From: an uncultured virus (IMG/VR IMGVR_UViG_3300010365_000310) | Lineage: Duplodnaviria > Heunggongvirae > Uroviricota > Caudoviricetes | Direction: 5' to 3' (one strand) | Virus record (IMG/VR): IMGVR_UViG_3300010365_000310 | Length of the DNA stretch: 64,000 nt | In this document: piece after piece, positions 8,830 to 36,361 of the stretch | How the letters are laid out: the number at the start of each line of letters is the position of its first letter | Position numbering within the stretch: the first letter of the stretch is position 1 | Program-made: the position numbers and the translations under genes | Notes under the pieces: model-generated | What the model saw: the letters and a program-made list of their open reading frames with translations, nothing else | Told to the model about the DNA's origin: nothing | Database searches by the model: none

Positions 8830-8840
8830 GTAAAGCACCA

Positions 8841-8870: not shown

Positions 8871-8893
8871 ATGTTAAAAAAGAAAGGTATAAT

Positions 8894-10572: not shown

Positions 10573-11784
10573 ATGAGCATTATTGCCCCATTAAATTTAG
10601 ATAACTTTATAGATAAGCTTTCTCTTAAGGAAGTTACCAACCCGACAATTCTTTCAACTAAAGGGAAGTATGACACTGATGGATTATTCTCAGAAAGCAT
10701 TTTTGGTATGGATAGGTCAAAAGAACGAAGAAAGACTTATGCATACATAAAATTGAATACTAGAATCATTCATCCCTTGTTATATCAAATTCTCAAAAAG
10801 ATTGAAAGAAAGATCATTGATTTAATAGAAGGGGAAACTCTTTATATCAATGAACAAGATGGTTCTCTTTCAAAAGATAAAGCAGACGGATATAAAGAAA
10901 TATCTGGATTTGATGGGGCGATTTATGCTCTTACTCATGGTGTATTCTTTAGAGGTGATACTGATGTTAGAGATAAGTTGGTAGTCAAACTAAAAGAATA
11001 TATTAAGAGTGGCCTAATGTTTCTAGATAAGATGATTGTGATACCACCAGATTTCAGACCAGCTCAAATTAGTGAAACAGGTGAGTTGATTGGCGTTGAT
11101 GAAGTTAACTCAATATACATCAAATTAATCAATCTCACCAAGAAAGTTAAACTAACTGAAAACAATGATGCTAATGGTGTAATAAGTGAATCATCATACA
11201 TCAGAAGAGATATTCAAAATTTAGTAGTTGAATTATTTGATTATGCAAAAATGAGAACTGGTAAAAAGAGCGGAATCAATCGAGCCAACCTTTTGGGTAA
11301 ACGCGTAGACTTCTCTGGTAGAACGGTCATTACGGCTGGATACGACCTGCCTTTAGGTATGGCTGGTGTTCCATATAGAATTCTAGCAAACATCTGTGAA
11401 CCATTCTTGATCCATCATTTCTATAAAGAATTAGCAGAAGGCAGTAAAGAATATGAAACATTCATGACGATATTGGAAAAGAATGATTTTCATAAAAGTT
11501 TAAATGTTTTGATATTGACAAACTTCCTAAGAGATCTATCCGATGGTGCTGTTAAGCTTTCTAAAGATGAAGAGCTTTTTATCATGGATGTTTTTCAAAG
11601 AATACTCAATGAAAAGTATGTTTTATTGAAAAGAGATCCATCGTTTCATAAAGGTAGCTGGCAAGCATATAGGATCAAGGTGGAGAATCAGGTTGCTATT
11701 CGATTGAACACCACTAGCACAGTTCTCCATAATGCCGATTTTGACGGCGATTGTTGTTTTTCTAAGATACGACTGCGATATTAA
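10573..11784 (+). CDS. rpoC: RNAP beta' paralog 1, N-terminal part, fused to a 10-aa split-intein N-fragment
   Basis: DGLFSESIFG, VIPPDFRP, NLLGKRVDFSGRTVI, LKRDPSFH, NADFDGD (11731-11751), then CCFSKIRLRY-stop. Confidence 0.93.
   Translation: MSIIAPLNLDNFIDKLSLKEVTNPTILSTKGKYDTDGLFSESIFGMDRSKERRKTYAYIKLNTRIIHPLLYQILKKIERKIIDLIEGETLYINEQDGSLSKDKADGYKEISGFDGAIYALTHGVFFRGDTDVRDKLVVKLKEYIKSGLMFLDKMIVIPPDFRPAQISETGELIGVDEVNSIYIKLINLTKKVKLTENNDANGVISESSYIRRDIQNLVVELFDYAKMRTGKKSGINRANLLGKRVDFSGRTVITAGYDLPLGMAGVPYRILANICEPFLIHHFYKELAEGSKEYETFMTILEKNDFHKSLNVLILTNFLRDLSDGAVKLSKDEELFIMDVFQRILNEKYVLLKRDPSFHKGSWQAYRIKVENQVAIRLNTTSTVLHNADFDGDCCFSKIRLRY
11752..11781 (+). mobile_element. Split intein 1, N-fragment (CCFSKIRLRY)
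   Basis: Cys directly after NADFDGD; positionally equivalent to SVIGAVELNI of IntN-2. Confidence 0.8.
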
Positions 11785-11916
11785 ATTGGTATACAGTCAC
11801 AATCATAATACAAGTTCTGGGCATTTAATGATGTTGTTTCTTTAGATGACGCAAAGTCTAAAACTCCGTTATGCATCATCTGCCAAAAAGAATATGCCAG
11901 ACCAAGTCATAATGGT

Positions 11917-13188
11917 ATGGAAACGTGTTCAAATAAAGAGTGCATCAAAACTAATACCAACAAGAAGAAAACTGTTGTTAGATCAAAACAACTATCAATA
12001 ATGCAAAGTAAAACTATTGATGAGTTGCTAAGCATATATAGTAATCGAACAACAAAGAAAACACCATTCGGATGGTTAACATGGATACACCCTCACTATT
12101 TAAAATTTGCTAAAGAAATATACACACAAGAAGATATAGAATTTTTTGGCCAATCCAGGTTGGAAGTTTTATATAAGTATTGGGCTAATTTAAATATTAA
12201 AAATGTGGATGATGCGAAGAAGACAATACCCATGTGCTCGTATTGTAATATTAAACCTAGAGCTCCAAGAATCGTGGGGGATGTCATTTTAGATTCTTGT
12301 GCATCTGCCGAATGTTTAAATAAAAATCACATCGATTCCACCAAAAGATCAATGAAAAATAAGTATGGTGTGGAGAATATAAGTTCTTTGGAGAGTATGA
12401 AAATATATAGAAGCGAGATCATGAAAAGGAATCATGAAAACTTTGGGGATATTACAGAATTGAAGCGCAAAGAATGTGTAAAAGCTAAATACGGTGTTGA
12501 TAATGTTTCACAGATTGAAGCAATTAAAGAAAAAAAGATTGATTCTTTTCAAGAACATTATGGCAAGGATAACATTTTTCAGAGATCTGACCTAATGAAA
12601 GAATATTGGTTAAATGCCCTGGGAGTTGAAAACCCAAAGTTCAAATCTGAAATTAATATTAAGCGATGCTTAAACTTAATACCAGCCTTAATTGAATCCG
12701 TTGGTGAATACCATATGATTAATGGCAAAAGGTTTGGTATTATGGAACCAACCGAACTTCATTTATTGAGAGCATTAGTTGATTATGTCAAAGTGGATGT
12801 CATCGAAACTAATTCAACGGTATTTGAGAAAATGATTTTGGGAAAATCTAGAGCTTATATACCAGATCTAGTTATCGATAATAAAATCATCATTGAATGC
12901 AAATCTTGCGGTTTCGTCGATGAATATAGATTGCGAGAGATGTATGACCTTATAGGTGATCCCGATAAGATTTTAATTACATTTTCTAGTCATAAAGATG
13001 AATTAGCATGGTTAGTATATAAAGATGGTATCATTGACCGAGTGCATTATGAAAGTATTAGGTCAAAAAGATATCTTTTAAAAAGCTTAAAAGTTTTTAA
13101 GAGTGATAGTGTCATAACGGATCTTTTAAACTATATAATTATGAACATATCATATTCAGCATTATTAGAGAATGCGATCTCTATATAA
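11917..13188 (+). CDS. Free-standing putative homing endonuclease (Zn-finger repeats, YGV-N repeats, PD-(D/E)xK nuclease), possibly 5'-truncated
   Basis: KYGVENIS/KYGVDNVS/HYGKDNIF repeats; YIPDLVIDNKIIIECK nuclease motif; lies between the two halves of a fractured gene. Confidence 0.75.
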   Translation: METCSNKECIKTNTNKKKTVVRSKQLSIMQSKTIDELLSIYSNRTTKKTPFGWLTWIHPHYLKFAKEIYTQEDIEFFGQSRLEVLYKYWANLNIKNVDDAKKTIPMCSYCNIKPRAPRIVGDVILDSCASAECLNKNHIDSTKRSMKNKYGVENISSLESMKIYRSEIMKRNHENFGDITELKRKECVKAKYGVDNVSQIEAIKEKKIDSFQEHYGKDNIFQRSDLMKEYWLNALGVENPKFKSEINIKRCLNLIPALIESVGEYHMINGKRFGIMEPTELHLLRALVDYVKVDVIETNSTVFEKMILGKSRAYIPDLVIDNKIIIECKSCGFVDEYRLREMYDLIGDPDKILITFSSHKDELAWLVYKDGIIDRVHYESIRSKRYLLKSLKVFKSDSVITDLLNYIIMNISYSALLENAISI

Positions 13189-13199
13189 AGGACACCAGA

Positions 13200-13691
13200 A
13201 TGAAGTATTCAAAAGAAGAAGTCTTACACATTCAAGATTTAATTTCTAGATCAGATCTTTTTGAATTCACCGAAGAAAAGAATGGCATCCAAAAGTATAA
13301 ACCAATGAAAGATATCTTTATACAAGCCATATCTTTAGAAGATGGCAACACTGATTGGAAAAAGATAACTGAATATTCAGTCCACCCCAATCTTACTATG
13401 TATTCGGTTGAAGATGCATTTGAGAATCGATTTGAAAAATTCTGGGTATCAGATGATCATAGTTTAATTGTATTTGATGAATTGGATGAAGCGTACCTTA
13501 AAATTACGCCAGAAGAAATACTAAATGATTTTTATCGATATTCGTTGGTTCAAATCGTTAATGGCGAGAAAAGATATATTCCATGCGAAGAAATAGAACT
13601 AAAGATTGACCCCGAGAAAACAACGGGTTATGATTTTACCGTTGAAGATTATTATACTTTTGCAACACATGATGGAGTTTTTGTACAAGAT
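13200..13691 (+). mobile_element. Split intein 1, C-fragment (164 aa)
   Basis: Block B WVSDDHSLI, block F GYDFTVEDYYTF, block G GVFVQD followed by Thr +1. Confidence 0.88.
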
Positions 13692-15755
13692 ACTATGGCC
13701 GTATACTTTCCGATTACGATGGAAGGTCAGAAGGATGCTGAGACATTAATGTATATACCAGAAGGCAGTGTCAATACACATCAGTCATCTATTGATATAA
13801 AACATGAATATGTTTTATCATCATATACCATGACTAAGATGCCAACTAAATTTGAATTACCTGATATAGGTATAATCAAGCTTGATGATGTTAGAAAAAA
13901 TTCATTAATGGATTTTGCTATAAAGAATCATATTTATCAAACGGCAACTGTTATATTAGATAATGGTGCTAAATTAAAAACTACGGTTGGTAGAATCACC
14001 TTTAATGCAATATTTCCAAAAGAATTCTTATTGAAATATCATAAGGGTTTTATCGAAACTGCTGTTGATTCTAAATTTATGGCCGGCGATATATTACAGA
14101 ATCTTTTTGAGATGTATCAGAAGTTTGATTATGCTGATATCATATATCGAATGGTTGAAGCATTAAGAAAATACATAACTGTATATCCATCTAGCATGGT
14201 TCTAAGTGAACTACTACAAGCTTCCATGTTTGATGATCTTAAAAAGAAACTTAGAGAAGCAAAGTCAATGCCGGAGAAACAAGCGATTATTGATCAAATA
14301 GAAAACAAGATCAAAAAAGAAATAGCAGATAAGATGCCTATGTTAAATGATATCATAGCATCTGGATCAAGAGGTAAGCCAAATCAATTAAGACAGATGA
14401 TTGTTTCTAAGGGTATTCTTCAAGATGCTCAAGGTAATCTGTTATATATTGATGAGTCGTATATTGATGGACTAAGTCCTATTTCTACATTCATGGGTGG
14501 CTTCGGTGGACGCAAAGGTATTATGGATAGATCTCGTCAAACCGCGACCACTGGATATCTTTATAGAAAGCTAATCTACGCATTAGCAAGTGTCATCTTT
14601 AATGAAGATGTTGATGATTGCGGAACAACTAAAACCGTCATGTGTAAACTTACCAAAAAGAATGCTAAACTTCTTGATGGTAGATTTATAATGGATGGCA
14701 AAAAGAAAGTTCTTTTGAATGCTAAAACGATTGGTGAGTTCATGGATACAACCATAAATCTAAGAACTCCAATATATTGCAAAACCCATAAGCTTTGTAA
14801 AACCTGCTATGGTGATTTGATGCACTTTTATCACAGTAAGTTCATAGGAATTATAGCAGCTCAATCCATGGGTGAACGCGCTTCTCAAGAAATGATGAAA
14901 ACGTTTCATACGGGTGGATCTACTAATGTTGAAATTCCAAACCTTTTTGAACAGATGGCCCACAATAATCCTTTGATTAAAGAATCTGATTTGATGAATT
15001 ATTTCATTCAAGAAGGTACGAAGTTTAAGCTTAAAAATAATTACAATGTTAAAATGGTTTTAAAACAGAGTGATTATTTGAAAGTGAATATGACTTCGTT
15101 TACGGTTATGGATGATGAACGTTCAGCGTTTATAGTTGAGAATATGAAGATTGAAGGAACTCAACTAGCTAGAGCGTTTCATACCAAACCATTCTCAGCG
15201 GAAATAACCATTTATAATGTATCGGAGGAATTATATACTTTTGATGCAATTATAGATGATGGTGTCTTTTTAGCTATTGATTATTTCGATGTTGACGAAT
15301 ATAAAAATGATGAAGGTGTAAAAGTAATTGAATTAAAGAATCGAGATAATGAATTACCATTCTTATTCAATGTTGAGTTATCTTCAAGCGATATGACCGT
15401 AATCATGCAAACGGTTCTTAATATCATTGAGCGCAAGAATATCATGAAGCACCCTGAAGTAGCATTCAATAAACTATCTTTAATTTATGGTGATGATTTT
15501 GGTATTGCTTACAATCATATTGAAATTTTGATATCTCAGATTTTTAGAAATAAAGCCAAACCTGAATTACCAGCACGGTTGGTTGATCCCTATGATGCTC
15601 AAGTTTACAGCATTAAAAATATTGCACACTTGGAATCATTTGTATCTGGTATGCTTTTTGAAAATATGAGTAAATCATTACAGAATGGTTTAATCAATGA
15701 TTCCACTATACAAAACCCTCTTGAGAAATTATTATCGGATGATTTGGAATTTTAA
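13200..15755 (+). CDS. rpoC: Split-intein C-fragment fused to RNAP beta' paralog 1 C-terminal part
   Basis: Own SD AAGGA (13188-13192); extein starts TMAVYFP; TTVGR, SGSRG, bridge helix GRKG...TATTGYLYRKL, Zn site, trigger loop AAQSMGE...KTFHTGG. Confidence 0.93.
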   Translation: MKYSKEEVLHIQDLISRSDLFEFTEEKNGIQKYKPMKDIFIQAISLEDGNTDWKKITEYSVHPNLTMYSVEDAFENRFEKFWVSDDHSLIVFDELDEAYLKITPEEILNDFYRYSLVQIVNGEKRYIPCEEIELKIDPEKTTGYDFTVEDYYTFATHDGVFVQDTMAVYFPITMEGQKDAETLMYIPEGSVNTHQSSIDIKHEYVLSSYTMTKMPTKFELPDIGIIKLDDVRKNSLMDFAIKNHIYQTATVILDNGAKLKTTVGRITFNAIFPKEFLLKYHKGFIETAVDSKFMAGDILQNLFEMYQKFDYADIIYRMVEALRKYITVYPSSMVLSELLQASMFDDLKKKLREAKSMPEKQAIIDQIENKIKKEIADKMPMLNDIIASGSRGKPNQLRQMIVSKGILQDAQGNLLYIDESYIDGLSPISTFMGGFGGRKGIMDRSRQTATTGYLYRKLIYALASVIFNEDVDDCGTTKTVMCKLTKKNAKLLDGRFIMDGKKKVLLNAKTIGEFMDTTINLRTPIYCKTHKLCKTCYGDLMHFYHSKFIGIIAAQSMGERASQEMMKTFHTGGSTNVEIPNLFEQMAHNNPLIKESDLMNYFIQEGTKFKLKNNYNVKMVLKQSDYLKVNMTSFTVMDDERSAFIVENMKIEGTQLARAFHTKPFSAEITIYNVSEELYTFDAIIDDGVFLAIDYFDVDEYKNDEGVKVIELKNRDNELPFLFNVELSSSDMTVIMQTVLNIIERKNIMKHPEVAFNKLSLIYGDDFGIAYNHIEILISQIFRNKAKPELPARLVDPYDAQVYSIKNIAHLESFVSGMLFENMSKSLQNGLINDSTIQNPLEKLLSDDLEF

Positions 15756-15770
15756 TAGGAGAATTACTTA

Positions 15771-16265
15771 ATGGACCGTTTGGATAAGTTTCTTTTTCTT
15801 TTTGGTATTGCACTAATGTTTACTTTTTTCTACCCTTCATATTTATGTCTAATGTGTATATATGGCACAATACTCATAATTGGTGGGATAATGACAAAAT
15901 CTTTTATGCCAGTAACCATTGGAGTGATTTCCTTTGTACCGTATTTAATGCCTCAGTTTAAATTGATGTCTTTGATTTTTGGTATTATGACATCATTAGC
16001 AGCTCTCGGCGCAAAAGGCGAAACACACGCAAGAACCGGAGAATCGGAAAAGTTATATATTGAAAGAGTTGTATTCGGTGAGATGGTTCTGTTTGAATTG
16101 TATACCCAAAACGAAAAGAAATATTGCATCGTTGAAAAGATAACAACCAAAGAACTTTATACAATTGAAGATTTTAATATTTATCATGAATCATTGTGCA
16201 AAGCATTAGATAAAGTTCACAATATCATGGAAGAAGATAAATCAGTTATTTGCATTTGGAAATGA
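15771..16265 (+). CDS. Membrane protein
   Basis: AGGAG RBS; hydrophobic N-terminal ~80 aa. Confidence 0.6.
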   Translation: MDRLDKFLFLFGIALMFTFFYPSYLCLMCIYGTILIIGGIMTKSFMPVTIGVISFVPYLMPQFKLMSLIFGIMTSLAALGAKGETHARTGESEKLYIERVVFGEMVLFELYTQNEKKYCIVEKITTKELYTIEDFNIYHESLCKALDKVHNIMEEDKSVICIWK

Positions 16266-16504
16266 GGAGAACTGCCATGTTTGAATTCGTGAAGTATGAT
16301 GCTGAAGACTTTTGCTCTATCGTTAGGGATAAAGAAGGATGGGCCGTGGGTGAACAAGCAGAATGCATTTTTCTCAATGATGAACCTTTGGAGGAACAGA
16401 ATCCAAATGCGTTAAAAGCAATTTCAGATCTTGCTAAATATAAAGGTGAACCTTTGATACATAAAGCAATAGAAGATTATTTAAATAACGTTCAGGAGAA
16501 TTAA
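16250..16504 (+). CDS. Small hypothetical protein
   Basis: ORF track; GAGGAG suggests the internal ATG is the real start. Confidence 0.5.
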   Translation: MHLEMRRTAMFEFVKYDAEDFCSIVRDKEGWAVGEQAECIFLNDEPLEEQNPNALKAISDLAKYKGEPLIHKAIEDYLNNVQEN

Positions 16505-16507
16505 CCC

Positions 16508-18244
16508 ATGTGCGGAATATTTGCGTTCTTTAATATGGATTCAGGTATTAAAATACCATATGAACTAATTAAGACTGTAGCCATTGAAGCCCAAAAAAGA
16601 GGCAGAGATGGTTATGGTTACATGATCAATGATGCACTTTATAAAGAATCATCATCCGATACTTTTGAAATGTTTAATGTTCGAATCGGTAGACAATCCT
16701 TTGGTATGGTTAATTGCAGGGCTAAACCTGAAACCGAACAGGCCACAACCAAAATCAATATGCAACCAATTTCTTATGTTGATATGTTCAACAATAAAGA
16801 ATACTTGGTGCATAATGGTGCAGTATCGGAAAGCTACAAAGATGAGATGTTTAAAAAGCATTCATGGAAGCCCATCACTAAAATAGATAGTGAAGCTTTG
16901 CTTTGTATGTGTGTACATGAAGGTGTTGATGCTAACACTCTTTCAAAGATTAATGGTGGTTTTGCATTCATTCATATGAAAGTATTTGAAGGTAAATTGC
17001 AAAAGGTGAGTGTTGCTTGCAAATACCAACCATTGTATGCATTGGAAGTAGCAAGCCCTGCTGGTAGTGTAATATTCTATCACAGTCTCAAAAGTGGTAT
17101 TGACATTCTTAAGAAATACTATGAAGCCGGGGAATACTTTATTAATGAATATGAATTCCCTGAATATGCTTTTGAAACATTTGACTTAGTTAATGGTACT
17201 CGAGATAAAGGAACATTCGAACCATATTTTGAATATCCTAATAAAGCTAAGACCAATAAGAAAGTTAAAGTATTATGCGCATGCTCTGGTGGTATTGACT
17301 CTACCACTAGTTTGATTATGGCTCATAAGCTTTTGGAAAAAACTAAAGTTCCGTTTGATATAGATCTGGTCCATTTTAAATATGGCCATAGAGGTCAGAC
17401 GGCCGAAATTAACGCGGTTCGAGATATAGTTGAATGGTTAGAGCATAGTGATATCAAAGTCAACCTTAAGGTTGTTGATCTTGAAGACATTTACAAATAC
17501 GTTTTTAATGTTCAAAGAAGTCAATTAATCAATCCAAACTTAGTTGTAGAAACTGGAACGCAGGATAAGTTAAAATCAACTGTGGCTTGGGTTCCGGTTA
17601 GAAATATGCTTTTTCAAACTATTATGATTGGTTTAGCTGAGACTTATATTCTTGAAGAAGGATATAAGAAAGCTTATATAGTTGCTGGTTGGAACCAACT
17701 ATCAGAAGAAGGATTCTACCCGGATAACTCAAGCAGGTTTGCTAATACAATGTTAAAAGCTGCTAAATTCGGAACACTGGTTGGCAATCAAATTAAACCA
17801 TGGAATATATGTAGCCAATTACTTAAAAGCGATCAGTGGTTGTTGGCTGAGGTATTCAAATTCATTGAAGTCTTTAAATACACAATATCTTGTGATATAC
17901 CAGTTCTTGATGGCCCCGCATTCTATAATTGCAATGGACAATGTGGATCTACTTTATTAAGTATGTGGGCAGCCAAAAGGTATAAAGGTATCAAAGATCC
18001 AAGACAATTCAGGGATGCTAGTGTAACCATAAGCAAAGATAAGATGTATACATCTCCAATTGAAGAAGAATTGGAAATAACCCGAGATGTAATAACTCAA
18101 ACCATCAATAGAATTATTAAACCAGATGAAGTCACCTACAATTTACACAAGATCTTTCAGACGAACATTCTGGAGACCATTAATAATGCCCGAAACAATG
18201 CAGTCGAATATATACCTGATGGAGATGTTGAAAAGGTTTTATGA
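16508..18244 (+). CDS. Gat-QueC fusion (Ntn glutamine amidotransferase + QueC)
   Basis: MCGIF start, RGRDG, QPI, HNG, IDSE; then CSGGIDST, YGHR, VPVRN, YPDN, TISC. Confidence 0.9.
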   Translation: MCGIFAFFNMDSGIKIPYELIKTVAIEAQKRGRDGYGYMINDALYKESSSDTFEMFNVRIGRQSFGMVNCRAKPETEQATTKINMQPISYVDMFNNKEYLVHNGAVSESYKDEMFKKHSWKPITKIDSEALLCMCVHEGVDANTLSKINGGFAFIHMKVFEGKLQKVSVACKYQPLYALEVASPAGSVIFYHSLKSGIDILKKYYEAGEYFINEYEFPEYAFETFDLVNGTRDKGTFEPYFEYPNKAKTNKKVKVLCACSGGIDSTTSLIMAHKLLEKTKVPFDIDLVHFKYGHRGQTAEINAVRDIVEWLEHSDIKVNLKVVDLEDIYKYVFNVQRSQLINPNLVVETGTQDKLKSTVAWVPVRNMLFQTIMIGLAETYILEEGYKKAYIVAGWNQLSEEGFYPDNSSRFANTMLKAAKFGTLVGNQIKPWNICSQLLKSDQWLLAEVFKFIEVFKYTISCDIPVLDGPAFYNCNGQCGSTLLSMWAAKRYKGIKDPRQFRDASVTISKDKMYTSPIEEELEITRDVITQTINRIIKPDEVTYNLHKIFQTNILETINNARNNAVEYIPDGDVEKVL

Positions 18245-19196
18245 TATCGGGATACCACATTTAAGTAAGTCGGAACAAGAACGTTTTAAATGTCATCTCT
18301 TTTCTATAGTTGATCTGTTATCTTTTAATTTGGATGATCGATTCAATTTACTTAGGGACTTTCTAGGGGATAGAAAACTAAAAGCATTTTTAACGTTCTT
18401 GTATAACCAAGAGTGTGATGATTTTAGGCGAGACCATCTAACCTTGGGGTATGGTGGTTGCGAAGGTAAACCCGAAGTTGTTTTTAGACATGTAGCAAAT
18501 CTGGCTCAAGAATATGAAGATCAAAAAATATTTGCATTAAGAACCCTATTCTTTAAAATCAATATTTTATCATCGATTGGTTATGAAAAGTATTTTTATG
18601 ATATTCGAGATGAATTGTTGTTTTATTGTTTAGCACCTTTGGGTTTAACCTTTGGTGAATGTTTCTTGTATTATGGTAAAGATACCTCTAGTTGGTTGAA
18701 GAATCTTGAAAGCGATAAGTTGAAATTTTCAATATGTGACCAGCTGCATACTCTTTATAATAATTCAGATAAAAGATCCATAGCGGTGTTATTGATATTG
18801 AAGCTTTTATCTTGTGATGTTTTTTCAAAGAATGATCAACCACATCTTGCTTACGTGGAAGGTAGAAAGCTTTACATAAATGAAACACTAATTAAAGAAG
18901 CCAATCTTCCGTTGTTATTACATGAAGCTTGTCATCTATTGCATTCATATGAGGACCGATTCAAGGATTTCTTGAATGCCTTTGGCCATTATTGTGAACC
19001 ATATGATATAGCTAAATCATGGGCGACAACCAAGGAAAGGTGTATAAACCAATTCATAAGAACCCATTGTTATCTTAAAACAATATCTCGAACAATCAAT
19101 AGCAATACAACCTTTGATACATTATCAATCACTACCAGTGTTATGTTAGATTTAAAGCAAAAGAATCAACCTTTCGTTAATCAGATTTGGAAATAG
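18126..19196 (+). CDS. Hypothetical protein with HExxH metallopeptidase-like motif
   Basis: EGRKLYINE...LLLHEACHLL; true start probably downstream of 18126. Confidence 0.5.
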   Translation: MKSPTIYTRSFRRTFWRPLIMPETMQSNIYLMEMLKRFYDIGIPHLSKSEQERFKCHLFSIVDLLSFNLDDRFNLLRDFLGDRKLKAFLTFLYNQECDDFRRDHLTLGYGGCEGKPEVVFRHVANLAQEYEDQKIFALRTLFFKINILSSIGYEKYFYDIRDELLFYCLAPLGLTFGECFLYYGKDTSSWLKNLESDKLKFSICDQLHTLYNNSDKRSIAVLLILKLLSCDVFSKNDQPHLAYVEGRKLYINETLIKEANLPLLLHEACHLLHSYEDRFKDFLNAFGHYCEPYDIAKSWATTKERCINQFIRTHCYLKTISRTINSNTTFDTLSITTSVMLDLKQKNQPFVNQIWK

Positions 19197-19197
19197 G

Positions 19198-21069: not shown

Positions 21070-21093
21070 GAATCAAATCAAAGGGGAATCTAA

Positions 21094-23811: not shown

Positions 23812-23835
23812 ACGATCCACCTTCTGGAGAAGAAT

Positions 23836-25029: not shown

Positions 25030-25039
25030 GGAGCTACTC

Positions 25040-25978: not shown

Positions 25979-26035
25979 TTCTAACTTATGCATCAGTAAA
26001 AAAATATATCAAATCTTATTCTAGGAGAATTATCT

Positions 26036-27061
26036 ATGGCCGGTAAGTCTGGCAATATAATGCACCAGAATGTTAGTAATATTTTGGAGGCTCAGAAGGA
26101 TGTATTGAAAGAGAACACGACCGCTGAAGAAGTCAAAGAAAAAATTGGTAAACCAGCCATGTTTGAACCACCAACTAAAAGTGAGCCTCAAGAAGAAAAG
26201 GGTAAAATGGTCTTTAAGGGATTCAAATACTCAGACACTTCTTGTGCAAAAGTTGAAACATATTTGCCAGTTTTGAATACTAAGGTTCGGCAGACTCCCA
26301 TTCTATTTCAGGAAGAATTAAATCTTGCTCAGACCATCATCACGGATAAAGATGTCATGATGGATACATTGACAATCCTTTACCAGCACATCGTTGAAGG
26401 TCCAACCGAGATCACTCCTTCTTTTGAAACATTCCTTAAGAATGTGCCGGAACCCGATTACGATGCACTACTATATGGTTTCTTCCTTAATAGTTATGGC
26501 CCGGATGTCAAGGTTGAAGATACCCTGAAATGTATTAATTGTGGTAAAGAACACTTCGTCGAATCAATCAATCTTCTTAATCTCTATAAAGAAACCCCGT
26601 ATGAAGGTGAAGCATTTGAATGTTTAAAAGTCATTGAAGAAGTCAATCTCAATGATTGCGGTATTGATGCTTCATTTTTCTTGAAAATGCCCTCCTTAGA
26701 AATTTACTCTCAGGATAAGAAAATCTCCAAGAGAAATTTCATCAGTGAATTAACTTCTGGTAATTTTGCTGATTACATCTGTAAGCTAGTTTATGCTGGT
26801 GAAGAATTCACCGATAAAGAAAGTATTGTAAATGCAATCAACACCCTCAATGTCACAGCCAGAAGGAAGCTTAAAAAAGTAATCAACGACAAGTATAATA
26901 AGTATGGTATCAAATTTACATACGAATGGACTTGTGATGGTAAAGTGCCAGACACAGATTCAATCAAAGAAAAAGCAGAGAAGAAGTGCAATAAAGCTAA
27001 TACTAAAAATTATAGAATCTTCGACTTGTTTTTTCGTGAGATATCTGAGTCTATATCTTAA
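26036..27061 (+). CDS. Baseplate hub assembly protein (T4 gp26-like)
   Basis: P...EE.L, D.DALL...SYG, CxxCG, LKMP, C-terminal Cys pair ending LFF. Confidence 0.6.
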   Translation: MAGKSGNIMHQNVSNILEAQKDVLKENTTAEEVKEKIGKPAMFEPPTKSEPQEEKGKMVFKGFKYSDTSCAKVETYLPVLNTKVRQTPILFQEELNLAQTIITDKDVMMDTLTILYQHIVEGPTEITPSFETFLKNVPEPDYDALLYGFFLNSYGPDVKVEDTLKCINCGKEHFVESINLLNLYKETPYEGEAFECLKVIEEVNLNDCGIDASFFLKMPSLEIYSQDKKISKRNFISELTSGNFADYICKLVYAGEEFTDKESIVNAINTLNVTARRKLKKVINDKYNKYGIKFTYEWTCDGKVPDTDSIKEKAEKKCNKANTKNYRIFDLFFREISESIS

Positions 27062-27257
27062 TCCGTTAGATGCAAATAAGATGATGGCGAAGTTGATTGA
27101 TACATACTTATCAACATTGTCTTATTTGCGTTACGAAGAAATATTGAGAATGCCGGTTCCGTTGCTTAATGCTTTAGTTGCAGTTAAGAGTGAAAGCAAA
27201 GGAAACGGAACTGATAATCTAGGTCCATTAATTAATGCATTCCTTGGAAGGAGATAA
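26904..27257 (+). CDS. Small gp51-like baseplate assembly protein (true start likely near 27081)
   Basis: YEEILRMPV motif directly after the gp26-like gene. Confidence 0.4.
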   Translation: MVSNLHTNGLVMVKCQTQIQSKKKQRRSAIKLILKIIESSTCFFVRYLSLYLNPLDANKMMAKLIDTYLSTLSYLRYEEILRMPVPLLNALVAVKSESKGNGTDNLGPLINAFLGRR

Positions 27258-27262
27258 CTACC

Positions 27263-27946
27263 TTGACTAAGCTCGCCAATATTAACGATTTCGAAAACTT
27301 TTTGAACAGCGCCGAAGAATCGTTTTCGAAAATGAATGAAATCTCAAAAAATGAAAATTTGACACCTGAAGAAAAAGAAAAACTTTCTCAGGAATACATG
27401 TCAAAGATTCAGGAAATTACCAACGTCTATAAATCCATTCTTGGATCGGTTAGGCAAAGGGGTAAGGGGGAGAAGGTTAGCAAATATTCTTTGAATGAAA
27501 GCATAAGAAAGCATAAGAATTTTGCATACAGTTTTCTTAATATTGAAGAAGACTCTGATATTGAAAAGATCACTGATTGCATGTATGATCTAATGGCTGA
27601 AGTCCTGAATGAAACAGATCTCAATAAGCGTTTCAGACTCAGTCAGCTTTATTCAATTGCTCTCAAGAAAAACTTCAATTCATTTCGTGAAAACATGATT
27701 GAGATGATTGAAACGGAAGCTAATGAAGAAACCAAATATGATATTGGTTCAGACTTCTATGCTGCATATTTCAAAATGATTGTTGAAGCAGTCAGCAAGA
27801 AATATAATGATGAAGTTGAAGAACGAATCAAAGCCGAAGAAAAAATGGCAGCAATGAGAAAAGCTAAAGAAGAAAAGATGGAAACTGGCAGTGAAATCGT
27901 AGGTGCAACCGAAGAGAAAAAAGTTGAGGCTGTAACTAATGTATAA
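27263..27946 (+). CDS. Hypothetical helical protein
   Basis: AGGAG before TTG start. Confidence 0.55.
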   Translation: MTKLANINDFENFLNSAEESFSKMNEISKNENLTPEEKEKLSQEYMSKIQEITNVYKSILGSVRQRGKGEKVSKYSLNESIRKHKNFAYSFLNIEEDSDIEKITDCMYDLMAEVLNETDLNKRFRLSQLYSIALKKNFNSFRENMIEMIETEANEETKYDIGSDFYAAYFKMIVEAVSKKYNDEVEERIKAEEKMAAMRKAKEEKMETGSEIVGATEEKKVEAVTNV

Positions 27947-28334
27947 TGTCACAAAGGTGGAAGTCATTAATGATGTAAATGTTGAAAGTATTCTTCAAAA
28001 GAAAGAGAATGGTTTATTTGAATCATTATCTGAATCAAGATACAGGTTATTCTGTGAAGCATTTGCTCATACGATCAATGAACGTTTTCCTCGGAGTGAC
28101 CGTCTACCTAAAGTAACATCTTTTGCATTAAGAACCGTAGTTAGTGATGATAAGGCGAGATATGTTCGTCTATTTGAACTGGCTACAAAATTCATGATGA
28201 CAACGGATGATGATAAAAAAGTTCAATATGATCTAACATTTGAAATCTATGAAACCCCCGAGGGTGACGAAGATTGTGAATTGTTGTCATATTACTCAGC
28301 TCAGTATAAACCAAAAGAAGAAAATGAAGGCTAA
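27939..28334 (+). CDS. Hypothetical protein
   Basis: Overlapping operon-style ORF. Confidence 0.5.
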   Translation: MYNVTKVEVINDVNVESILQKKENGLFESLSESRYRLFCEAFAHTINERFPRSDRLPKVTSFALRTVVSDDKARYVRLFELATKFMMTTDDDKKVQYDLTFEIYETPEGDEDCELLSYYSAQYKPKEENEG

Positions 28335-29673
28335 AGTTTCTTTTCACGTAGAAATACCATTATCGGATATAAATCCGGGTCATTTGGACCAGATTAAATC
28401 CCATTTGACTTTACAAGTCAGAGATTACATGACTGGTGAATATCAAAAGGTTGAATATTTCTACGTGGATGAAAATGCTAAAACAATAACGTTGCCGCAA
28501 TTCTATCCAATGGAAGTGGATGAAGTTGAATTTGTGGCAACGTCCGGACAACCGTTATCTTCAGGTTATTCAATCACTCCCGATTTCAAATATAAACCAG
28601 GTCAAGAGGATGATGTCAATAAATGCTTGATTAAAGATATCATCACTCTAATGAAACCACCCGGTTCTGGTAAAACTATCATAGGATCTTGCGCCATATT
28701 TAAACGTGGTGTAAGATCCTTGATCTTAGTTGACCAAAATAACTTATCGGAACAATGGTTGGATGCTTTGAAGTTAGTCTATAAAGATACAATCAAAGTA
28801 AGTAATAAGTTTGCTTTAGATGGTAAGGGAAAAGATCATGGTTATGATGTCTATGTCACCACCATTCAAGGTATAGTAGCCAAGATACGAAAGTATGGTA
28901 TTGCGTCAGTTCGAGAGTGGTATAAGAAGTATGATATAGGACATGTGCTTTTGGATGAGTGTCATGTCTTAGTGGGTCCAGAGAAGTTTTCACAATTTGG
29001 TCATATATGCAATTCAAAGTATGTATTGGCATTATCCGCTACACCAAAAGATAATGTTTATTTTCAATATTGGTTGGGTGTTGATGTTGAAGGTGATAAA
29101 GATTATGTAGTTAGCCCGACTATTGTTGAGATGAGTTTTAATGCAAAAATGAATTATAAAGAAAAGTATATCAACTGGGGTGGCAAATTTCACAAAGATC
29201 GTCATGCTAATATACTATTTAAGGATGAACACTATTTGGATTTAATCAGAGCTGTTGCATATAAGTCATTCATCAATAAACGTCAATTCTTAGCAATCTG
29301 TGATTTTAATAAGTTTGGTGTTGATGCAATATATGATCACATAATCAAACTCATACCCAAAGAGCAAGTGGCTAAATTTATCGGCGGACAAGATCGTATT
29401 GAATGTTCAAGCAAACCAATTATCATTAGTAATTATAAGATGTTGCAAAAGGGTGCTGACATTAAAACCTTGGATACATTATTGATGGCTAGTGAGATTG
29501 GAGACTTAACCGCTCTTGAGCAAACCGTTGGTAGATTATTACGTTTCTTGGAATCAATTACTAAAAAAGAATTATTAGTTTTTGATATACAAGAAACATC
29601 CCTGACTTGTAATCTATGGAGAAAAGATAAAAGATTTTCCTTTTACCGTGAGAAAAATTTTACGATAATATGA
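28324..29673 (+). CDS. Superfamily 2 helicase (UvsW-like)
   Basis: PPGSGKT, LLDECH, LSATP, GADI, QTVGRLLR. Confidence 0.88.
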   Translation: MKAKVSFHVEIPLSDINPGHLDQIKSHLTLQVRDYMTGEYQKVEYFYVDENAKTITLPQFYPMEVDEVEFVATSGQPLSSGYSITPDFKYKPGQEDDVNKCLIKDIITLMKPPGSGKTIIGSCAIFKRGVRSLILVDQNNLSEQWLDALKLVYKDTIKVSNKFALDGKGKDHGYDVYVTTIQGIVAKIRKYGIASVREWYKKYDIGHVLLDECHVLVGPEKFSQFGHICNSKYVLALSATPKDNVYFQYWLGVDVEGDKDYVVSPTIVEMSFNAKMNYKEKYINWGGKFHKDRHANILFKDEHYLDLIRAVAYKSFINKRQFLAICDFNKFGVDAIYDHIIKLIPKEQVAKFIGGQDRIECSSKPIIISNYKMLQKGADIKTLDTLLMASEIGDLTALEQTVGRLLRFLESITKKELLVFDIQETSLTCNLWRKDKRFSFYREKNFTII

Positions 29674-29865
29674 AACAATAGACTGAATAATAAAAATAAT
29701 CATTCAGAAAGAGGTTTCCATGATACCCATTGATATCCCGGAACAATACGTAGATATCACTATAGAAGAAAAAATAAATTCACTCAACCGTTACTATTCC
29801 AAAAATCCCGACTTTAAAGAATACGAACTTTGCTTATCATTTTTAGAAAAAGCTAGGAGCGTGAA

Positions 29866-30153
29866 ATGTCTTACGCATGGGTGATCATCAAAGAATTTGA
29901 TTTTGAAAATTCTGAGTTGTTTAAAGATGTTGAGATTATAGGACCAAGACACCCAAAATTTTCAAAAGACAAAATCATAAATGAAGGTTCAAAATTTCGA
30001 CTGTACGATGATGACGGTGTTCTTTATTATGAAGGACATATCTTTGGTGATGATACCGTTAATGGTTTTGAACCATTAGACGATTTTGGTATGCCTAATG
30101 ATGGTTGTACCACAATCAAGTATTTTGTAGATGGTATTTGGAAAACTTTATAA
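29866..30153 (+). CDS. Conserved-type small phage protein
   Basis: AGGAG RBS; FRLYDDDG..YYEG motif. Confidence 0.6.
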   Translation: MSYAWVIIKEFDFENSELFKDVEIIGPRHPKFSKDKIINEGSKFRLYDDDGVLYYEGHIFGDDTVNGFEPLDDFGMPNDGCTTIKYFVDGIWKTL

Positions 30154-30163
30154 GGGGAAACTC

Positions 30164-31483
30164 ATGCCGAAAAAACTAGTTCTCAAGAAGTTGACTGATT
30201 ATGATTCGAAGCCGGTTACCAGTGATAAAATCATTGATAAGAAACGGTTTCATGAAGCAGGACTTTATAGTCAAGCAATCTTTGGTCCAATTAAAGATTA
30301 TGTTTGCCAGTGTGGTAAATATGATCCATTCGGCGGGGAATGTGAAGTATGTAAAGTTGCTTATACCAAAAGCGAAGTTCGAGGCACTAAGTTCGGCCAT
30401 ATCTTATTGCCTAATGAAATCATTAATCCATTGTTCTTGTGGAATCTAAGCACAAGGATTAAAAAGAGCACCACTAAAATTGATTTGCCATCACTGATTT
30501 TCTATAAAAAGATTTTGATCTTTAAAGATGGTGAACCAAGAATGGTTTCGGTTGAAGATTTTGATACAGTGAAAGAAACTTATGACACTTACTGTGGTGT
30601 TGAAGCCGTAAAGAAAGTTATAGCTTTCATTGAAGAAAAACTCAAAGAAAATGAAAAGTTTAAAATTGAGCCATATATCAAAATGTCTTCTTGGAAACTT
30701 ATTAAAGAAGCTGGTGAACATCTTTTTATTGATAGAATACTGGTAGTCCCGCCAGATCTCAGACCAATACTCTTTACTGGTAACAAGATGGTTGTTCAGG
30801 AAACTCTGTCAAGATTGTATACAACTCTTTTGACTAAGTTGAATATCATGAACAATAAAACCAAATTTATCAAAGGTGTAAATACAACAACTTTTAAGAA
30901 TTACGCAGATATTCAATATATGTGCTCAGGCATTTATGAAGAAATTTTGGGTATCTTTGGTGGTAAGACTGGTATCATCAGAGGTAACATGCTTGGGAAG
31001 AGAATTGATTATTCCGGGCGAGCTGTTATTGCAGTGGATCCGAGCCTGAAATATAACGAATGTAGAATTCCGTATTATATACTTCTTGAAGTGTATAAAT
31101 ATTCTCTGGCAAGAGATATATCTAAGAAGCGTAATGTAATGATCTTTAAAGTTCTTGATGAGATTGAAGAGTCTTTAAAGTTCAGGGATTACAGGTTTCT
31201 TAAAGAAGTTGAAGAATTTGTCAAGAATAAGATGGTCATGCTCAACCGTCAGCCAACTCTTTATAAACTTGGGGTTCTTGGTTGGAATATTAAAGTTAGC
31301 ACGGATTTTACTATCAAATTGCACCCATTCGCCTGCCCCGCCTATAACGCCGATTTTGATGGCGATTCAGTTATTGGGGCAGTAGAACTGAATATCGAAG
31401 GCAAGAAGAAAGTATTTGAGATGGAAGATCTACTCAATGTTGAATTCAATGAAAAGAAAAACGACTGGGAGATTGTGAAATGA
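30164..31483 (+). CDS. rpoC: RNAP beta' paralog 2, N-terminal part, fused to a 38-aa split-intein N-fragment
   Basis: GLYSQAIFGP..DYVCQCGKY...CEVC zinc ribbon, VVPPDLRP, NMLGKRIDYSGRAVI, NRQPTL, YNADFDGD (31346-31366), then SVIGAV... Confidence 0.94.
   Translation: MPKKLVLKKLTDYDSKPVTSDKIIDKKRFHEAGLYSQAIFGPIKDYVCQCGKYDPFGGECEVCKVAYTKSEVRGTKFGHILLPNEIINPLFLWNLSTRIKKSTTKIDLPSLIFYKKILIFKDGEPRMVSVEDFDTVKETYDTYCGVEAVKKVIAFIEEKLKENEKFKIEPYIKMSSWKLIKEAGEHLFIDRILVVPPDLRPILFTGNKMVVQETLSRLYTTLLTKLNIMNNKTKFIKGVNTTTFKNYADIQYMCSGIYEEILGIFGGKTGIIRGNMLGKRIDYSGRAVIAVDPSLKYNECRIPYYILLEVYKYSLARDISKKRNVMIFKVLDEIEESLKFRDYRFLKEVEEFVKNKMVMLNRQPTLYKLGVLGWNIKVSTDFTIKLHPFACPAYNADFDGDSVIGAVELNIEGKKKVFEMEDLLNVEFNEKKNDWEIVK
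31367..31480 (+). mobile_element. Split intein 2, N-fragment (38 aa, Ser1)
   Basis: SVIGAVELNIEGKKKVFEMEDLL has the intein block A strand-strand-helix pattern. Confidence 0.85.
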
Positions 31484-32061
31484 TTAAAGAGTATATTCGA
31501 GAACTTGAAGATTACATTTTAGGATTCACTGATGGTGTTGTACCAAAAGAAATTCAAAGCATAAGCAATTTGAGTGAAAAGCAAATTCAAGATCTTTTTG
31601 ATATGAAGGAATTTATTCTTTCAAATAGAAATATATTTCAGCCGTTTTCTAAACTTGAATATTATGACACAATATTCTGTTTCGGGTTTAAATTGGTTAT
31701 TAACTCAAGATCCAAAATAGAAGAATATATTGCTGATAAAATGTTTAAAAGAAGAGAGATTGTCATGAAATTGGTTGATGATAAAGATCTTCTGGCAACT
31801 CTTTATGTCACAGTTCCTAAAAAACCTTTAGTCGAAACAATTTCAAAATCCGATTACATGGAATCTTTGTATGATATTGCTTGTGATCTTTGTGAAGTGC
31901 TTGGAGAAGATAAAATCAATCTTTTCACAAGTAGGCAAATTAAATATCTTGCGTCATTACTTGATTGCACCAAAGGTGATTTCGGGTATAAGATTTCATA
32001 TTCAGTTATGAATGATCTTTTTAAAGAACGATTCGAGGCAGAATTGAATGAGTTCAAATGA
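31480..32061 (+). CDS. Hypothetical protein inside the fractured beta' locus 2
   Basis: ATGA overlap with upstream gene; no motif recognised. Confidence 0.6.
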   Translation: MIKEYIRELEDYILGFTDGVVPKEIQSISNLSEKQIQDLFDMKEFILSNRNIFQPFSKLEYYDTIFCFGFKLVINSRSKIEEYIADKMFKRREIVMKLVDDKDLLATLYVTVPKKPLVETISKSDYMESLYDIACDLCEVLGEDKINLFTSRQIKYLASLLDCTKGDFGYKISYSVMNDLFKERFEAELNEFK

Positions 32062-32206
32062 TTTAAAACCCGGAGTCTATGAACTTTTCGGAAATACCGT
32101 TCATTATCTTGATGAAGAGGCCTATGATGTTGATGCTGGTCAAGAGGTTCCGGTAGATGTTCTTAAAGAATATGGCAAATTTGTAAAAGATTTTGATAAC
32201 TTTTGA
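32048..32206 (+). CDS. Small acidic protein (52 aa), not in ORF track
   Basis: MSSNDLKPGVYELFG...FDNF; fills the gap between neighbouring ORFs. Confidence 0.5.
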   Translation: MSSNDLKPGVYELFGNTVHYLDEEAYDVDAGQEVPVDVLKEYGKFVKDFDNF

Positions 32207-32216
32207 AAGGGAGTAA

Positions 32217-32711
32217 ATGGAACAATCAGATCTGCCCCAATTGTTAGTCCTATTGAATTGCCAGAATGATTTTGCTACCCCCGAATTTCCATACTATAAA
32301 AAGTTGTTATGTGATACCCATCGAAAAGATATTTTGAAATTATTGGAAACCGTTTTTTATGATGATGTTTTGGTATTGATCGACTTGCATAGTAAAGAAG
32401 AGTTTGAAAGAAAGCAAATTAAACATTGTATATTTAATAGTGAAGGTGCTATGATATTCACTCCATTGTTGCAATATCTTAGAAAGAATTTTAAAACCCG
32501 AGCTTTCATTAAAAATGAAACAAGACACCTGAGAAATAATAATCTACTCAAAACTCATTTATCTAATTTCAATCCCAGAGTTACTACCATTGATTATTGC
32601 GGGTTTGAACATTATAAGAATGAATTTGAAGATGTACATAATTATTTTGCTAACTTCGGTTATGCAACCGGTAAAAAAGTTATCATGAATGTATCTAATA
32701 AGGAGAACTGA
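32217..32711 (+). CDS. Divergent nicotinamidase/isochorismatase-family protein
   Basis: LLVLLNCQNDF, IDLH, HCIFNSEGA, FIK; catalytic Asp/Cys look altered. Confidence 0.6.
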   Translation: MEQSDLPQLLVLLNCQNDFATPEFPYYKKLLCDTHRKDILKLLETVFYDDVLVLIDLHSKEEFERKQIKHCIFNSEGAMIFTPLLQYLRKNFKTRAFIKNETRHLRNNNLLKTHLSNFNPRVTTIDYCGFEHYKNEFEDVHNYFANFGYATGKKVIMNVSNKEN

Positions 32712-32714
32712 GGT

Positions 32715-33182
32715 ATGGGAAAGAAGTTATTTGAATTCAGTCATAAAGATGGACATATATCTCATTATAAACCAACGGTGAATATTTTGATTGAAGCCAT
32801 TTCAGAAGATGGTAAAATCGAAATGAAACCAATAACAGATTTCTCAGTTCATGAAAACTTGGTTATGTATAAAGTGCACGATAGACTAAATCGTTTTAAA
32901 GATTTTTGGGCATCGGATGATCACAGCTTGTTAGCTATTGATCGCGGTAAAGTCTACAAGATATCGCCAAAAGAAATTCTTGAAAAACGAGACAAAGAAA
33001 TAATCAATATGATATATAAGAATCCACCATCTGATGCAAGCCATGTGTCGGAGTTGGGTATTATTTTTATCAATGCAAATGAACTTGATATCACTCTTGA
33101 TCCAAGTAAGACAACTGCATATGATTTCACCGTTGAAAATTACTTTACTTTCAGATTAGCAGATGGTCTGTTTGTACAGGAT
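32715..33182 (+). mobile_element. Split intein 2, C-fragment (156 aa)
   Basis: Block B WASDDHSLL, block F AYDFTVENYFTF, block G GLFVQD followed by Ser +1. Confidence 0.88.
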
Positions 33183-34691
33183 TCAATGGCTGCATACTTT
33201 ACCTTAACTGAGGAAGCTGAAGCTGAACTCCGTGATAAGGTGTCAATTGATAATAACCTTTTCATGGATTTCGATAAAAGGAACCTCACCCTTCAACCGG
33301 GACACGATATCGTATATGGTATATACTTACTATCCAAACGTAAACCAGAGGCGTTGCCTAAACCGTTACACGAATATATGGTAGCCCAAGGATGGGATTC
33401 AGTCAATAAGAAAAGGCTTAAAGAATTTCTTGTCTATCACATTGGTCTTGATAAACGCAATGCAAAAATCATTGATGAGATTACTCAGCTTGGTTTCACC
33501 ATTGCTACCAAATACAATCAAACACATCTGTCCATTGAAAACATTATTTCTAGTATCGTACCATTGGAAAAGAGACAGGCTCTTTATGATCGATACATGA
33601 AAAAAGAAATCAGTATGTTTGAATACATGGAAGAAGACGAGAAGATGACCGATGAACTCAAGAAGATCTGCGTCTTCACGGATTTGATTGAATCTGGATC
33701 AAGAGGTTCATGGCCTCAGGCTAAACAGATGTTTCAACAGAGAGGTTTCGTAAGTAACTCGGTTGGACAGGTTATGCCCACTCCGGTCATGAGAAACCTA
33801 GCTGAAGGTCTTGATTCAAGAGAATTATTCCTTTCGTGTTATGGTGTTAGAAAAGGTATTGCAGATATCTCCGACAACACCGCCGTATCTGGTACATTTA
33901 CTAGAGCTCTAATCTATCTTGGACTTGAGGCTAAACAGGGTGATCACAAGAAGCCATGCGATACGAAAAAGTATTTGAATCTCAATGTTGAAGATGAAAA
34001 GATGGCTAGCGCCTTGTTCGGTCGTTACATTTTCCTTGATGACGAATGCAAAGAAATGGTTCGAGTCACAAGAGAGAATTATAAAACATTCATTAATCAA
34101 AATGTTAGATTGAGATCTCCAATCTATTGTGTGAATCATGAATATTGCCACTATTGTTCACCATATAAAGAACTGAATGAAATCGAAAAAGGTAAGACCT
34201 ATAATGTAGGCATCAATGCTGCTGGTAGCTTAGGTGAACCAACCACCCAGATGGTTCTCAGAGTATTCCATACCTCCGGGGCTAGTGGTAAGATTTCAGA
34301 TAATCAAGATGGGAAACAGGGGGTTGTTCAGGATTTGAGAGGAACCATTGGGTTATTCTCTAAGCCTAACTTTACCTTTCAAACTCTCCCGAACTATCTT
34401 TATAAGATATACAAGACCTATAGTGAATACAAAGAAATTCCGATGCTCTATTTTGAAGTATTGCTTTCTTGTTTGATGTGGACCAAGTCAGATCCGAATC
34501 TTGAAGAAGTGGATGTCCTGTGGAGATTGAAGCAGGATAATACCTTGGAACTTGTTGGATATAATAAAGTTCCAAGTCTTTATGGATTCTTGCTTGGTTG
34601 CGCCTTTAAGAACTTCAAACGAAGATTGCTTTCCTCATTGAATAAGAATGTTGGTAATAGCATATTCGAGAAACTCATTCTGGGAGAATGA
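32715..34691 (+). CDS. rpoC: Split-intein C-fragment fused to RNAP beta' paralog 2 C-terminal part
   Basis: AGGAG RBS; extein starts SMAAYF; QPGHDIVYGIYLL, SGSRG, VRKG...TAVSG, RSPIYC, AAGSLGEPTTQMVLRVFH. Confidence 0.93.
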   Translation: MGKKLFEFSHKDGHISHYKPTVNILIEAISEDGKIEMKPITDFSVHENLVMYKVHDRLNRFKDFWASDDHSLLAIDRGKVYKISPKEILEKRDKEIINMIYKNPPSDASHVSELGIIFINANELDITLDPSKTTAYDFTVENYFTFRLADGLFVQDSMAAYFTLTEEAEAELRDKVSIDNNLFMDFDKRNLTLQPGHDIVYGIYLLSKRKPEALPKPLHEYMVAQGWDSVNKKRLKEFLVYHIGLDKRNAKIIDEITQLGFTIATKYNQTHLSIENIISSIVPLEKRQALYDRYMKKEISMFEYMEEDEKMTDELKKICVFTDLIESGSRGSWPQAKQMFQQRGFVSNSVGQVMPTPVMRNLAEGLDSRELFLSCYGVRKGIADISDNTAVSGTFTRALIYLGLEAKQGDHKKPCDTKKYLNLNVEDEKMASALFGRYIFLDDECKEMVRVTRENYKTFINQNVRLRSPIYCVNHEYCHYCSPYKELNEIEKGKTYNVGINAAGSLGEPTTQMVLRVFHTSGASGKISDNQDGKQGVVQDLRGTIGLFSKPNFTFQTLPNYLYKIYKTYSEYKEIPMLYFEVLLSCLMWTKSDPNLEEVDVLWRLKQDNTLELVGYNKVPSLYGFLLGCAFKNFKRRLLSSLNKNVGNSIFEKLILGE

Positions 34692-34692
34692 A

Positions 34693-36213: not shown

Positions 36214-36361
36214 TACCATCTTTAGAAATGAAGAAGGTATTGTTAAAGGTATCTTGAAGAAAGGTGATGTTATTGACGTCCATTTTAATGATGTCATCAA
36301 AGCATACCATAATGACAAGTATGGTTACTTCATGGATGTTGAACTCGAGGTCTTACCATGA
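36191..36361 (+). CDS. Small hypothetical protein (56 aa), not in ORF track
   Basis: AGGAG before ATG 36191; ATGA overlap with next gene. Confidence 0.55.
   Translation: MKAMIKYNTIFRNEEGIVKGILKKGDVIDVHFNDVIKAYHNDKYGYFMDVELEVLP

Follow-up and report, generated by a model that had tools for sequence, protein, structure and literature searches.

Two beta-prime paralogs of an uncultured virus are broken at one catalytic-loop site by homologous inteins split at different points

We analysed a window of 64,000 nucleotides from the uncultured virus IMGVR_UViG_3300010365_000310 (Caudoviricetes). This 64-kb window is part of a 76-kb virus record, and nearly all of its genes lie on one strand. It contains two paralogous genes for the beta-prime subunit of RNA polymerase (RNAP), and both are broken directly after the motif NADFDGD by homologous split inteins (Table 1). 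The break lies in the Mg-binding loop of beta-prime. In copy 1, the open reading frame (ORF) of the N-terminal half spans 10573-11784. Its motif at 11731-11751 is followed by 10 codons (11752-11781) and a TAA stop codon, and the ORF of the C-terminal half (13200-15755) starts with the C-terminal intein piece IntC-1. The N-terminal ORF of copy 2 spans 30131-31483, with the motif at 31346-31366, 38 further codons (31367-31480) and a TGA stop codon; IntC-2 is found at the start of its C-terminal ORF (32715-34691). Paralog 1 has no Zn ribbon. The N and C pieces are in different frames in both copies, and both C genes have a purine-rich Shine-Dalgarno-like word upstream and no in-frame upstream start. 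The inteins are naturally split in that their complementary pieces sit on separately translated genes, a pattern repeated in orthologs. The IntN-1 sequence with its stop codon is identical in the X1 and X2 contigs, which come from runs of one study, and four assembled loci (L011, L012, L026 and L027, which may share one sample) match the window at 99.97-100%.

Table 1. Features of the two beta-prime copies and of the beta genes in the window
Feature	Position	Strand	Properties	Evidence
Beta-prime paralog 1 N-extein	10573..11751	+	ends NADFDGD	Pfam RNA_pol_Rpb1_2, E 4.6e-22; translation
IntN-1	11752..11784	+	10-aa N piece and stop; Cys1; net +3; split site A	
Putative free-standing homing endonuclease gene	11809..13188	+	copy 1 spacer	DUF7487, E 2.6e-8
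IntC-1	13200..13691	+	164-aa C piece; net -19; His62, His87, Asp145; ends Gln-Asp	
Paralog 1 C-extein	13692..15755	+	687 aa; +1 Thr	Pfam Rpb1_5, E 1.8e-21
Beta-prime paralog 2 N-extein	30131..31366	+	Zn ribbon; ends NADFDGD	Pfam Rpb1_2, E 1.2e-22
IntN-2	31367..31483	+	38-aa N piece and stop; Ser1; no Cys; net -3; split site B	
Three spacer ORFs	31480..32711	+	193, about 52 and 164 aa; between copy 2 halves	
IntC-2	32715..33182	+	156-aa C piece; no Cys; net -6; ends Gln-Asp	
Paralog 2 C-extein	33183..34691	+	502 aa; +1 Ser	Pfam Rpb1_5, E 1.1e-14
RNAP beta N-terminal piece	34648..36213	+		Pfam Rpb2_3
RNAP beta C-terminal piece	39210..41063	+		Pfam Rpb2_6, Rpb2_7

The interrupting segments have the hallmarks of inteins. 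The cores of IntC-1 and IntC-2 are identical at 70 of 141 positions (50%), and every motif pair that the first-pass annotation had quoted in calling the two inteins homologous is present; its placing of both at the same insertion site is likewise borne out. The predicted model of IntC-1 adopts the HINT fold with a predicted local distance difference test score (pLDDT) of 90.6. Its best Foldseek match is the Aes123 PolB1 intein (E 2.5e-7), and the listed matches are all inteins or intein-like domains. A Pfam scan of the intein pieces gave no match, and a single-sequence fold of the unsplit N half L008 was unusable (pLDDT 40). The splice junction residues are Cys1 and Thr+1 in copy 1 and Ser1 and Ser+1 in copy 2. 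All 30 long C pieces have His62, the block B histidine His87, the block F aspartate Asp145 and the terminal Asp; His62 is a candidate for the motif-NX histidine that is used by Ser1 inteins. In the intein-free ortholog P0025 the motif runs directly into the segment corresponding to 13692..15755, and L052, L059-L065 and phage TM30 also continue from the motif into the C-extein, which fixes the junction. We also considered rejoining at the RNA level and rejected it. No Rfam match was found in the whole window at the gathering threshold, so no known intron rejoins the N and C pieces; no joint skipping the insert occurs in contigs of mostly DNA-like runs, which is a weak argument.

The terminal His-Asn of classical inteins is not found. 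Gln-Asp stands in its place in both window inteins and in 40 of 43 C pieces of the relatives, and we read it as a variant terminus that is the norm of this family. With such a non-canonical end the pieces might never ligate, the inteins cleaving off or staying on and the beta-prime halves assembling non-covalently. The residue at position -1 is also Asp here, and in many inteins this promotes premature N-cleavage (PMC11842431). Many intein-free relatives end about 50 aa past the motif, so beta-prime may tolerate a nearby break. However, this outcome seems quite improbable to us. The catalytic residues are invariant, all 43 C pieces have Thr, Ser or Cys at +1, the break falls in the Mg-binding loop, and the contiguous intein in an unbroken ORF of L003 has the same terminus.

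The two inteins are divided at different points, as the first-pass annotation had noted: copy 1 into 10 + 164 aa and copy 2 into 38 + 156 aa. In alignments with inteins that have no break in this region, IntC-1 starts before a short strand and the first helix and IntC-2 after them. In the IntC-1 model the strand (residues 7-8) and the helix (residues 11-15) belong to the part that is absent from IntC-2. The geometry claimed for the crossed pairs holds as well. IntN-1 with IntC-2 lacks the strand and helix segment, a gap of ~15 residues seen both in the alignments and in the IntC-1 model, and IntN-2 with IntC-1 carries the segment twice, with an overlap of about 17 residues in addition to an 11-residue tail. 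This tail follows a 27-aa core in IntN-2 and reaches ~11 residues beyond the usual end of its class. It is present only in relatives that are at least 89% identical, and we treat it as a recent extension. Its likeness to the starting hairpin of IntC-2, of which it might be a duplicate, is not significant (p=0.08 against shuffles, with 3 of 80 ORF ends scoring as high).

Searches with the intein and both exteins recovered a family whose members reside in uncultured large phages. The 121 non-redundant N pieces comprise 5 split at site A, 28 at site B, 37 split canonically, 2 contiguous, 48 intein-free and 1 tandem. These classes were set by length (10-13 aa for site A, 27-70 aa for site B and 128-145 aa for canonical pieces), stop codons being seen only in the locus-based rows. 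The tally excludes 13 proteins without an intact DFDGD, and one of the 48 intein-free rows, P0132, is actually an intein that starts with Ala. P0132, P0043 and P0060 are family members starting with Ala or Thr, not with Ser or Cys. Both split points are conserved, each among the orthologs of its own copy. Among 8 close orthologs of the copy 1 N half, 4 end 11-13 aa past the motif (site A), 1 is intein-free and 3 break inside the motif; 5 orthologous C pieces share the start point of IntC-1. Close orthologs of the copy 2 N half are split at site B in 9 of 11 cases and break inside the motif in the other 2. Site A was seen only in the copy 1 clade, and the same intein occurs contiguous, canonically split and absent among relatives. 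No phage carrying it was found in a search of cultured phages, where the best matches are <30% identical.

Several further arrangements are seen around the motif. P0103 and P0104 hold two inteins in tandem at one NADFDGD site: a complete contiguous mini-intein ending in Gln-Asp precedes a site-B N piece of 25-28 aa that starts with Ser, so that the first intein would use residue 1 of the second as its +1 nucleophile. In P0028, P0031, P0032, P0099 and P0102, close orthologs from both paralogs, the motif itself is interrupted after DFDG, probably by a group I intron. The motif loop is a hot spot of mobile-element insertion. Intein-free beta-prime proteins with a Zn ribbon end 50-54 aa past the motif in P0058, P0059, P0062-P0064, P0067, P0068 and others, and other intein-free Zn-ribbon beta-prime genes are single-chain. 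L003 encodes, at 3611-9984, a beta-prime with a contiguous endonuclease-bearing intein at the NADFDGD site and a second intein further on; upstream it has an intein-free break with an unrelated gene inserted. On one contig (L008 and L010) the canonically split halves of a single intein lie >60 kb apart on opposite strands. The 3.8-kb contig L050, which carries a site-B C piece, was binned with a Thermoplasmata genome; this may hint at a host, or the contig may be viral and wrongly binned.

The history of the intein differs from that of its hosts. The extein trees keep the two paralogs apart, but the intein tree mixes them, with 10 changes of paralog label where shuffling gives 16.3 on average, and monophyly of the inteins by paralog is rejected by the approximately unbiased (AU) test (p=0.001). 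Since the intein tree is not divided by paralog, the intein moved between paralogs. This comparison of extein and intein phylogenies upholds the earlier proposal that the intein had spread between them, and the proposal of independent splitting stands too, because breaks at two different points require no fewer than two events. The two window inteins may be close kin, since a clade of them with their relatives is not rejected (p=0.54), nor is a single origin of site B (p=0.22) or of site A (p=0.62). All trees were computed without a mixture model. A nesting of the copy 2 intein among canonically split ones (support 90/97) was lost when more rows were added.

From these data a mobile intein would have colonised the NADFDGD site in both paralogs, and each copy would later have been broken by a separate gene insertion, along the fractured-gene route. 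The copy 1 halves still enclose an endonuclease-like gene, whereas none is seen between the copy 2 halves. The copy 1 spacer ORF is open from 11809, with its first ATG at 11917, and a PD-(D/E)xK-like motif was spotted by eye in its product. No nuclease family match was found for it; we regard the DUF7487 product as a putative endonuclease with a predicted nuclease activity. The start of this gene is gone in the window strain through a 189-nt deletion at a 10-nt direct repeat (11801-11810). The X1 and X14 contigs hold the 189 nt extra at this place, flanked by the repeat, and a loose end of X2 near it shows GGAGG, a ribosome-binding site, followed by ATG. Loose ends at 12122 and 13163 suggest more variation. 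The three spacer ORFs of copy 2 are also present in L043; no family match was found for the two that were tested, and no endonuclease was seen among the three.

The stagger itself looks inherited from separate breaking events, given that the split points are conserved by clade and that contiguous, canonically split and intein-free alleles coexist. Selfish spread with independent breakage would fit better than a design for insulation. The first-pass annotation had offered built-in orthogonality, that is, a purpose-built stagger; this was not supported. In G005 one paralog is split at site B while the other has no intein, and P0025, the closest relative of copy 1 (73% identical), is intein-free. 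In its selective form the idea says that pairs split at the same site mis-splice and that only staggered pairs persist, which would insulate the two polymerases. It can point to the sole genome examined with both paralogs split, in which the sites do differ, and to site A with its distinct charge pattern and its restriction to one clade. We still think it improbable, since there is a single case only, site B is widespread and found without a second intein, the relative nearest to copy 1 has none, and with three sites in use a mismatch is likely by chance.

We consider it fairly probable that each N piece trans-splices only, or strongly preferentially, with its own C piece, which would give two separate polymerases. 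IntN-1 with IntC-2 would likely fail across the gap of a strand and a helix. In the reverse pair, IntN-2 would have to displace the copy of the segment that is tethered to IntC-1 itself and is modelled as folded on the core (pLDDT 79 at residues 11-20). No affinity was seen with Npu fragments caged by a part of their partner (PMC11766414). This pair would also bring acid to acid. The C pieces of site A have net charges of -17 to -20 (6 of 6) against -16 to +5 in 24 pieces of site B, and the exteins of site A only about -2 per 160 aa. Positions 5-9 of the N piece carry +2 or +3 in 5 of 5 site-A members, at least +2 in 14 of 67 others, and -1 in IntN-2. The strongly acidic IntC-1 (-19) is matched by a basic IntN-1 (+3), and IntN-2 is acidic (-3 overall). 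As a specificity cue, this charge pattern is suggestive only. Furthermore, the crossed pair would join exteins that are ill-fitted to each other. Between the paralogs, extein identity is 26% and 28%, and the two halves would meet within the catalytic barrel; assembly of a hybrid is accordingly unlikely. The insulation is likely a by-product of history and ordinary co-adaptation of partners, not a designed switch.

Some observations weigh against such a preference for the cognate partner. Site-A members form a single clade, and the charge they have in common therefore does not count as independent evidence; the excess of acidic residues falls mostly at positions 51-130; and the copy 2 orthologs P0094 and P0101 also have a basic strand. 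Cross-reaction is plausible with C cores that are 50% identical. Overlapping Npu fragments bound (PMC3427171), and strand invasion is known to give intein-mediated protein alternative splicing (iPAS; Aranko 2013 as cited in PMC8175363). The deep intein tree lacks resolution, and a second genome with both paralogs split was not found in the data examined. The steps of splicing, binding and timing are all ones that we infer. Promoter and terminator scans gave results at chance level. A complex prediction for IntN-2 with IntC-1 scored 0.91 and one unrelated control 0.87, and it was used neither for nor against any reading.

The same overlap allows a one-way leak, in which IntN-2 invades IntC-1 and yields some hybrid of the paralog 2 N half and the paralog 1 C half (N2-C1) as a dead end without active enzyme. 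IntN-2 and IntC-1 jointly hold a full HINT domain, with every intein element and about 17 residues twice, as IntN-1 and IntC-2 do not. Both C pieces keep the candidate motif-NX histidine His62, and the engineered precedents of overlapping Npu pieces and iPAS point the same way. On the other hand, the acid-acid pairing and the folded segment of IntC-1 itself would oppose the invasion, and a faster cognate reaction would likely use up the precursors. We judge this leak unlikely, and give hardly better prospects to some hybrid forming in a tube; that it would function as an enzyme is much less likely still. The first-pass annotation had named the N2-C1 hybrid as a possible product, which charge mismatch, self-occupancy by the IntC-1 segment and the low extein identity speak against. 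That the staggered inteins would drive one-way combinatorial splicing to a third beta-prime in infected cells is very unlikely in our view. Protein-level alternative splicing to a third working polymerase, with a Zn-ribbon N half of paralog 2 and a C half of paralog 1, is about the least probable outcome of all. It has the geometry as a possibility, and the two loci share a strand and a gene cluster, which might let their precursors be present together. However, the poorly matched exteins would meet within the catalytic barrel domain. No hybrid is needed by the related phages G006, G007, G009 and G010, whose two paralogs both lack inteins, and nothing conserved points to one. Separate polymerases from cognate splicing stay our preferred reading.

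Two polymerases are the norm of this family, since G005, G006 and G007 each carry a pair of genes for beta-prime and another pair for beta. In the intein-free phages G006, G007, G009 and G010, beta-prime is single-chain with about 900 and 1005 aa; some other relatives have a beta-prime that ends about 50 aa past the motif. The 76-kb fragment of the window contains a single beta set but two beta-prime genes, and the beta piece at 34648..36213 is, from its position, likely the partner of paralog 2. In group 1 (phiKZ-like) jumbo phages, a Zn ribbon and a beta subunit made of two pieces are features of the non-virion RNAP (PMC7824862). By analogy, copy 2 is likely a non-virion-type and copy 1 a virion-type RNAP. 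Between the two beta pieces (36358-38949) there is a gene for a topoisomerase subunit A with a contiguous intein (Pfam Intein_splicing), in which an HNH-like insert was seen by eye. Elsewhere in the window, at 16508-18244 and 42545-43156, look-alikes of a QueC-type synthase-amidotransferase fusion and of GTP cyclohydrolase I were noticed by eye, which suggests 7-deazaguanine modification of the DNA.

The arrangement resembles several known systems without matching any of them. The Chy RIR1 intein has a terminal Asp. The Pab PolII intein shares a non-Asn last residue and an extra hairpin with ours, with a weak profile match (E 0.046). In contrast to both, most C pieces here (40 of 43) end in Asp preceded by Gln, which is the norm of the family. 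The GOS-/AceL-TerL and Cat inteins split after the first helix. Their N pieces of about 25-30 aa are like the 27-aa core of IntN-2 (PMC11766414), but they sit in terminase, whereas the copy 2 C piece has 156 aa, keeps an extra hairpin as in Pab PolII and has no cysteine. The copy 1 layout, with an endonuclease-like gene between the halves, resembles that of the fractured genes which Dassa et al. described in 2009 (PMC2677866). Their hosts do not include RNA polymerase, the term having 0 occurrences in the accessible text, and in our genome one allele is found in two paralogs, split at N-proximal sites that differ. PolB16 OarG is similar in its very short N piece, its C piece of 168 aa, its Ser-type chemistry and a second conserved histidine (PMC10189870), and IntC-1 matches its structure 8cpo (E 0.023). 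It differs in an N piece of 15 aa instead of 10, called the shortest characterised in 2023 (PMC10189870), in its PolB host and in ending at Asn183, not Gln-Asp; IntN-1 starts with Cys, unlike PolB16 OarG. In engineered Npu DnaE (SP12, SP36 and SP102) one intein has three staggered split sites, as here, and overlapping SP102N/SP36C bound measurably, gapped SP36N/SP102C least (PMC3427171). The Npu pieces, however, were made from one sequence, whereas the window inteins are natural and 50% identical. With the phiKZ-like group 1 phages the family shares two paralogous multisubunit RNAPs, two beta/beta-prime sets in G005, G006 and G007, and a Zn ribbon with a two-piece beta in one RNAP (PMC7824862). 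A permanent split of beta-prime after the catalytic barrel was not found among the intein-free relatives G006, G007, G009 and G010, where it is single-chain. Contiguous inteins in RNA polymerases are already known (PMC1635734); general background without further bearing is given in PMC6892783, PMC8987985, PMC7765530, PMC11078102 and PMC2874743. A literature search that covered few subscription papers and no supplements found no report of split inteins at the phage beta-prime NADFDGD site and none of one allele split at several natural sites.

In this family one intein allele, inserted in the catalytic loop of an RNA polymerase, exists both in contiguous form and with natural splits at three sites. 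The Gln-Asp terminus poses a mechanistic question. With 10 aa, IntN-1 is shorter than the 15-aa PolB16 piece, and short N pieces are sought for protein semisynthesis, as is the absence of cysteine from both intein pieces of copy 2. The hybrid polymerase is a long shot; should it exist and be active, nature would offer an example of alternative splicing at the protein level. With its two copies split at different points, this one genome provides a natural test of split-intein specificity. The value of the locus lies mainly in this natural orthogonality experiment and in its supply of split inteins that are very short or free of cysteine.

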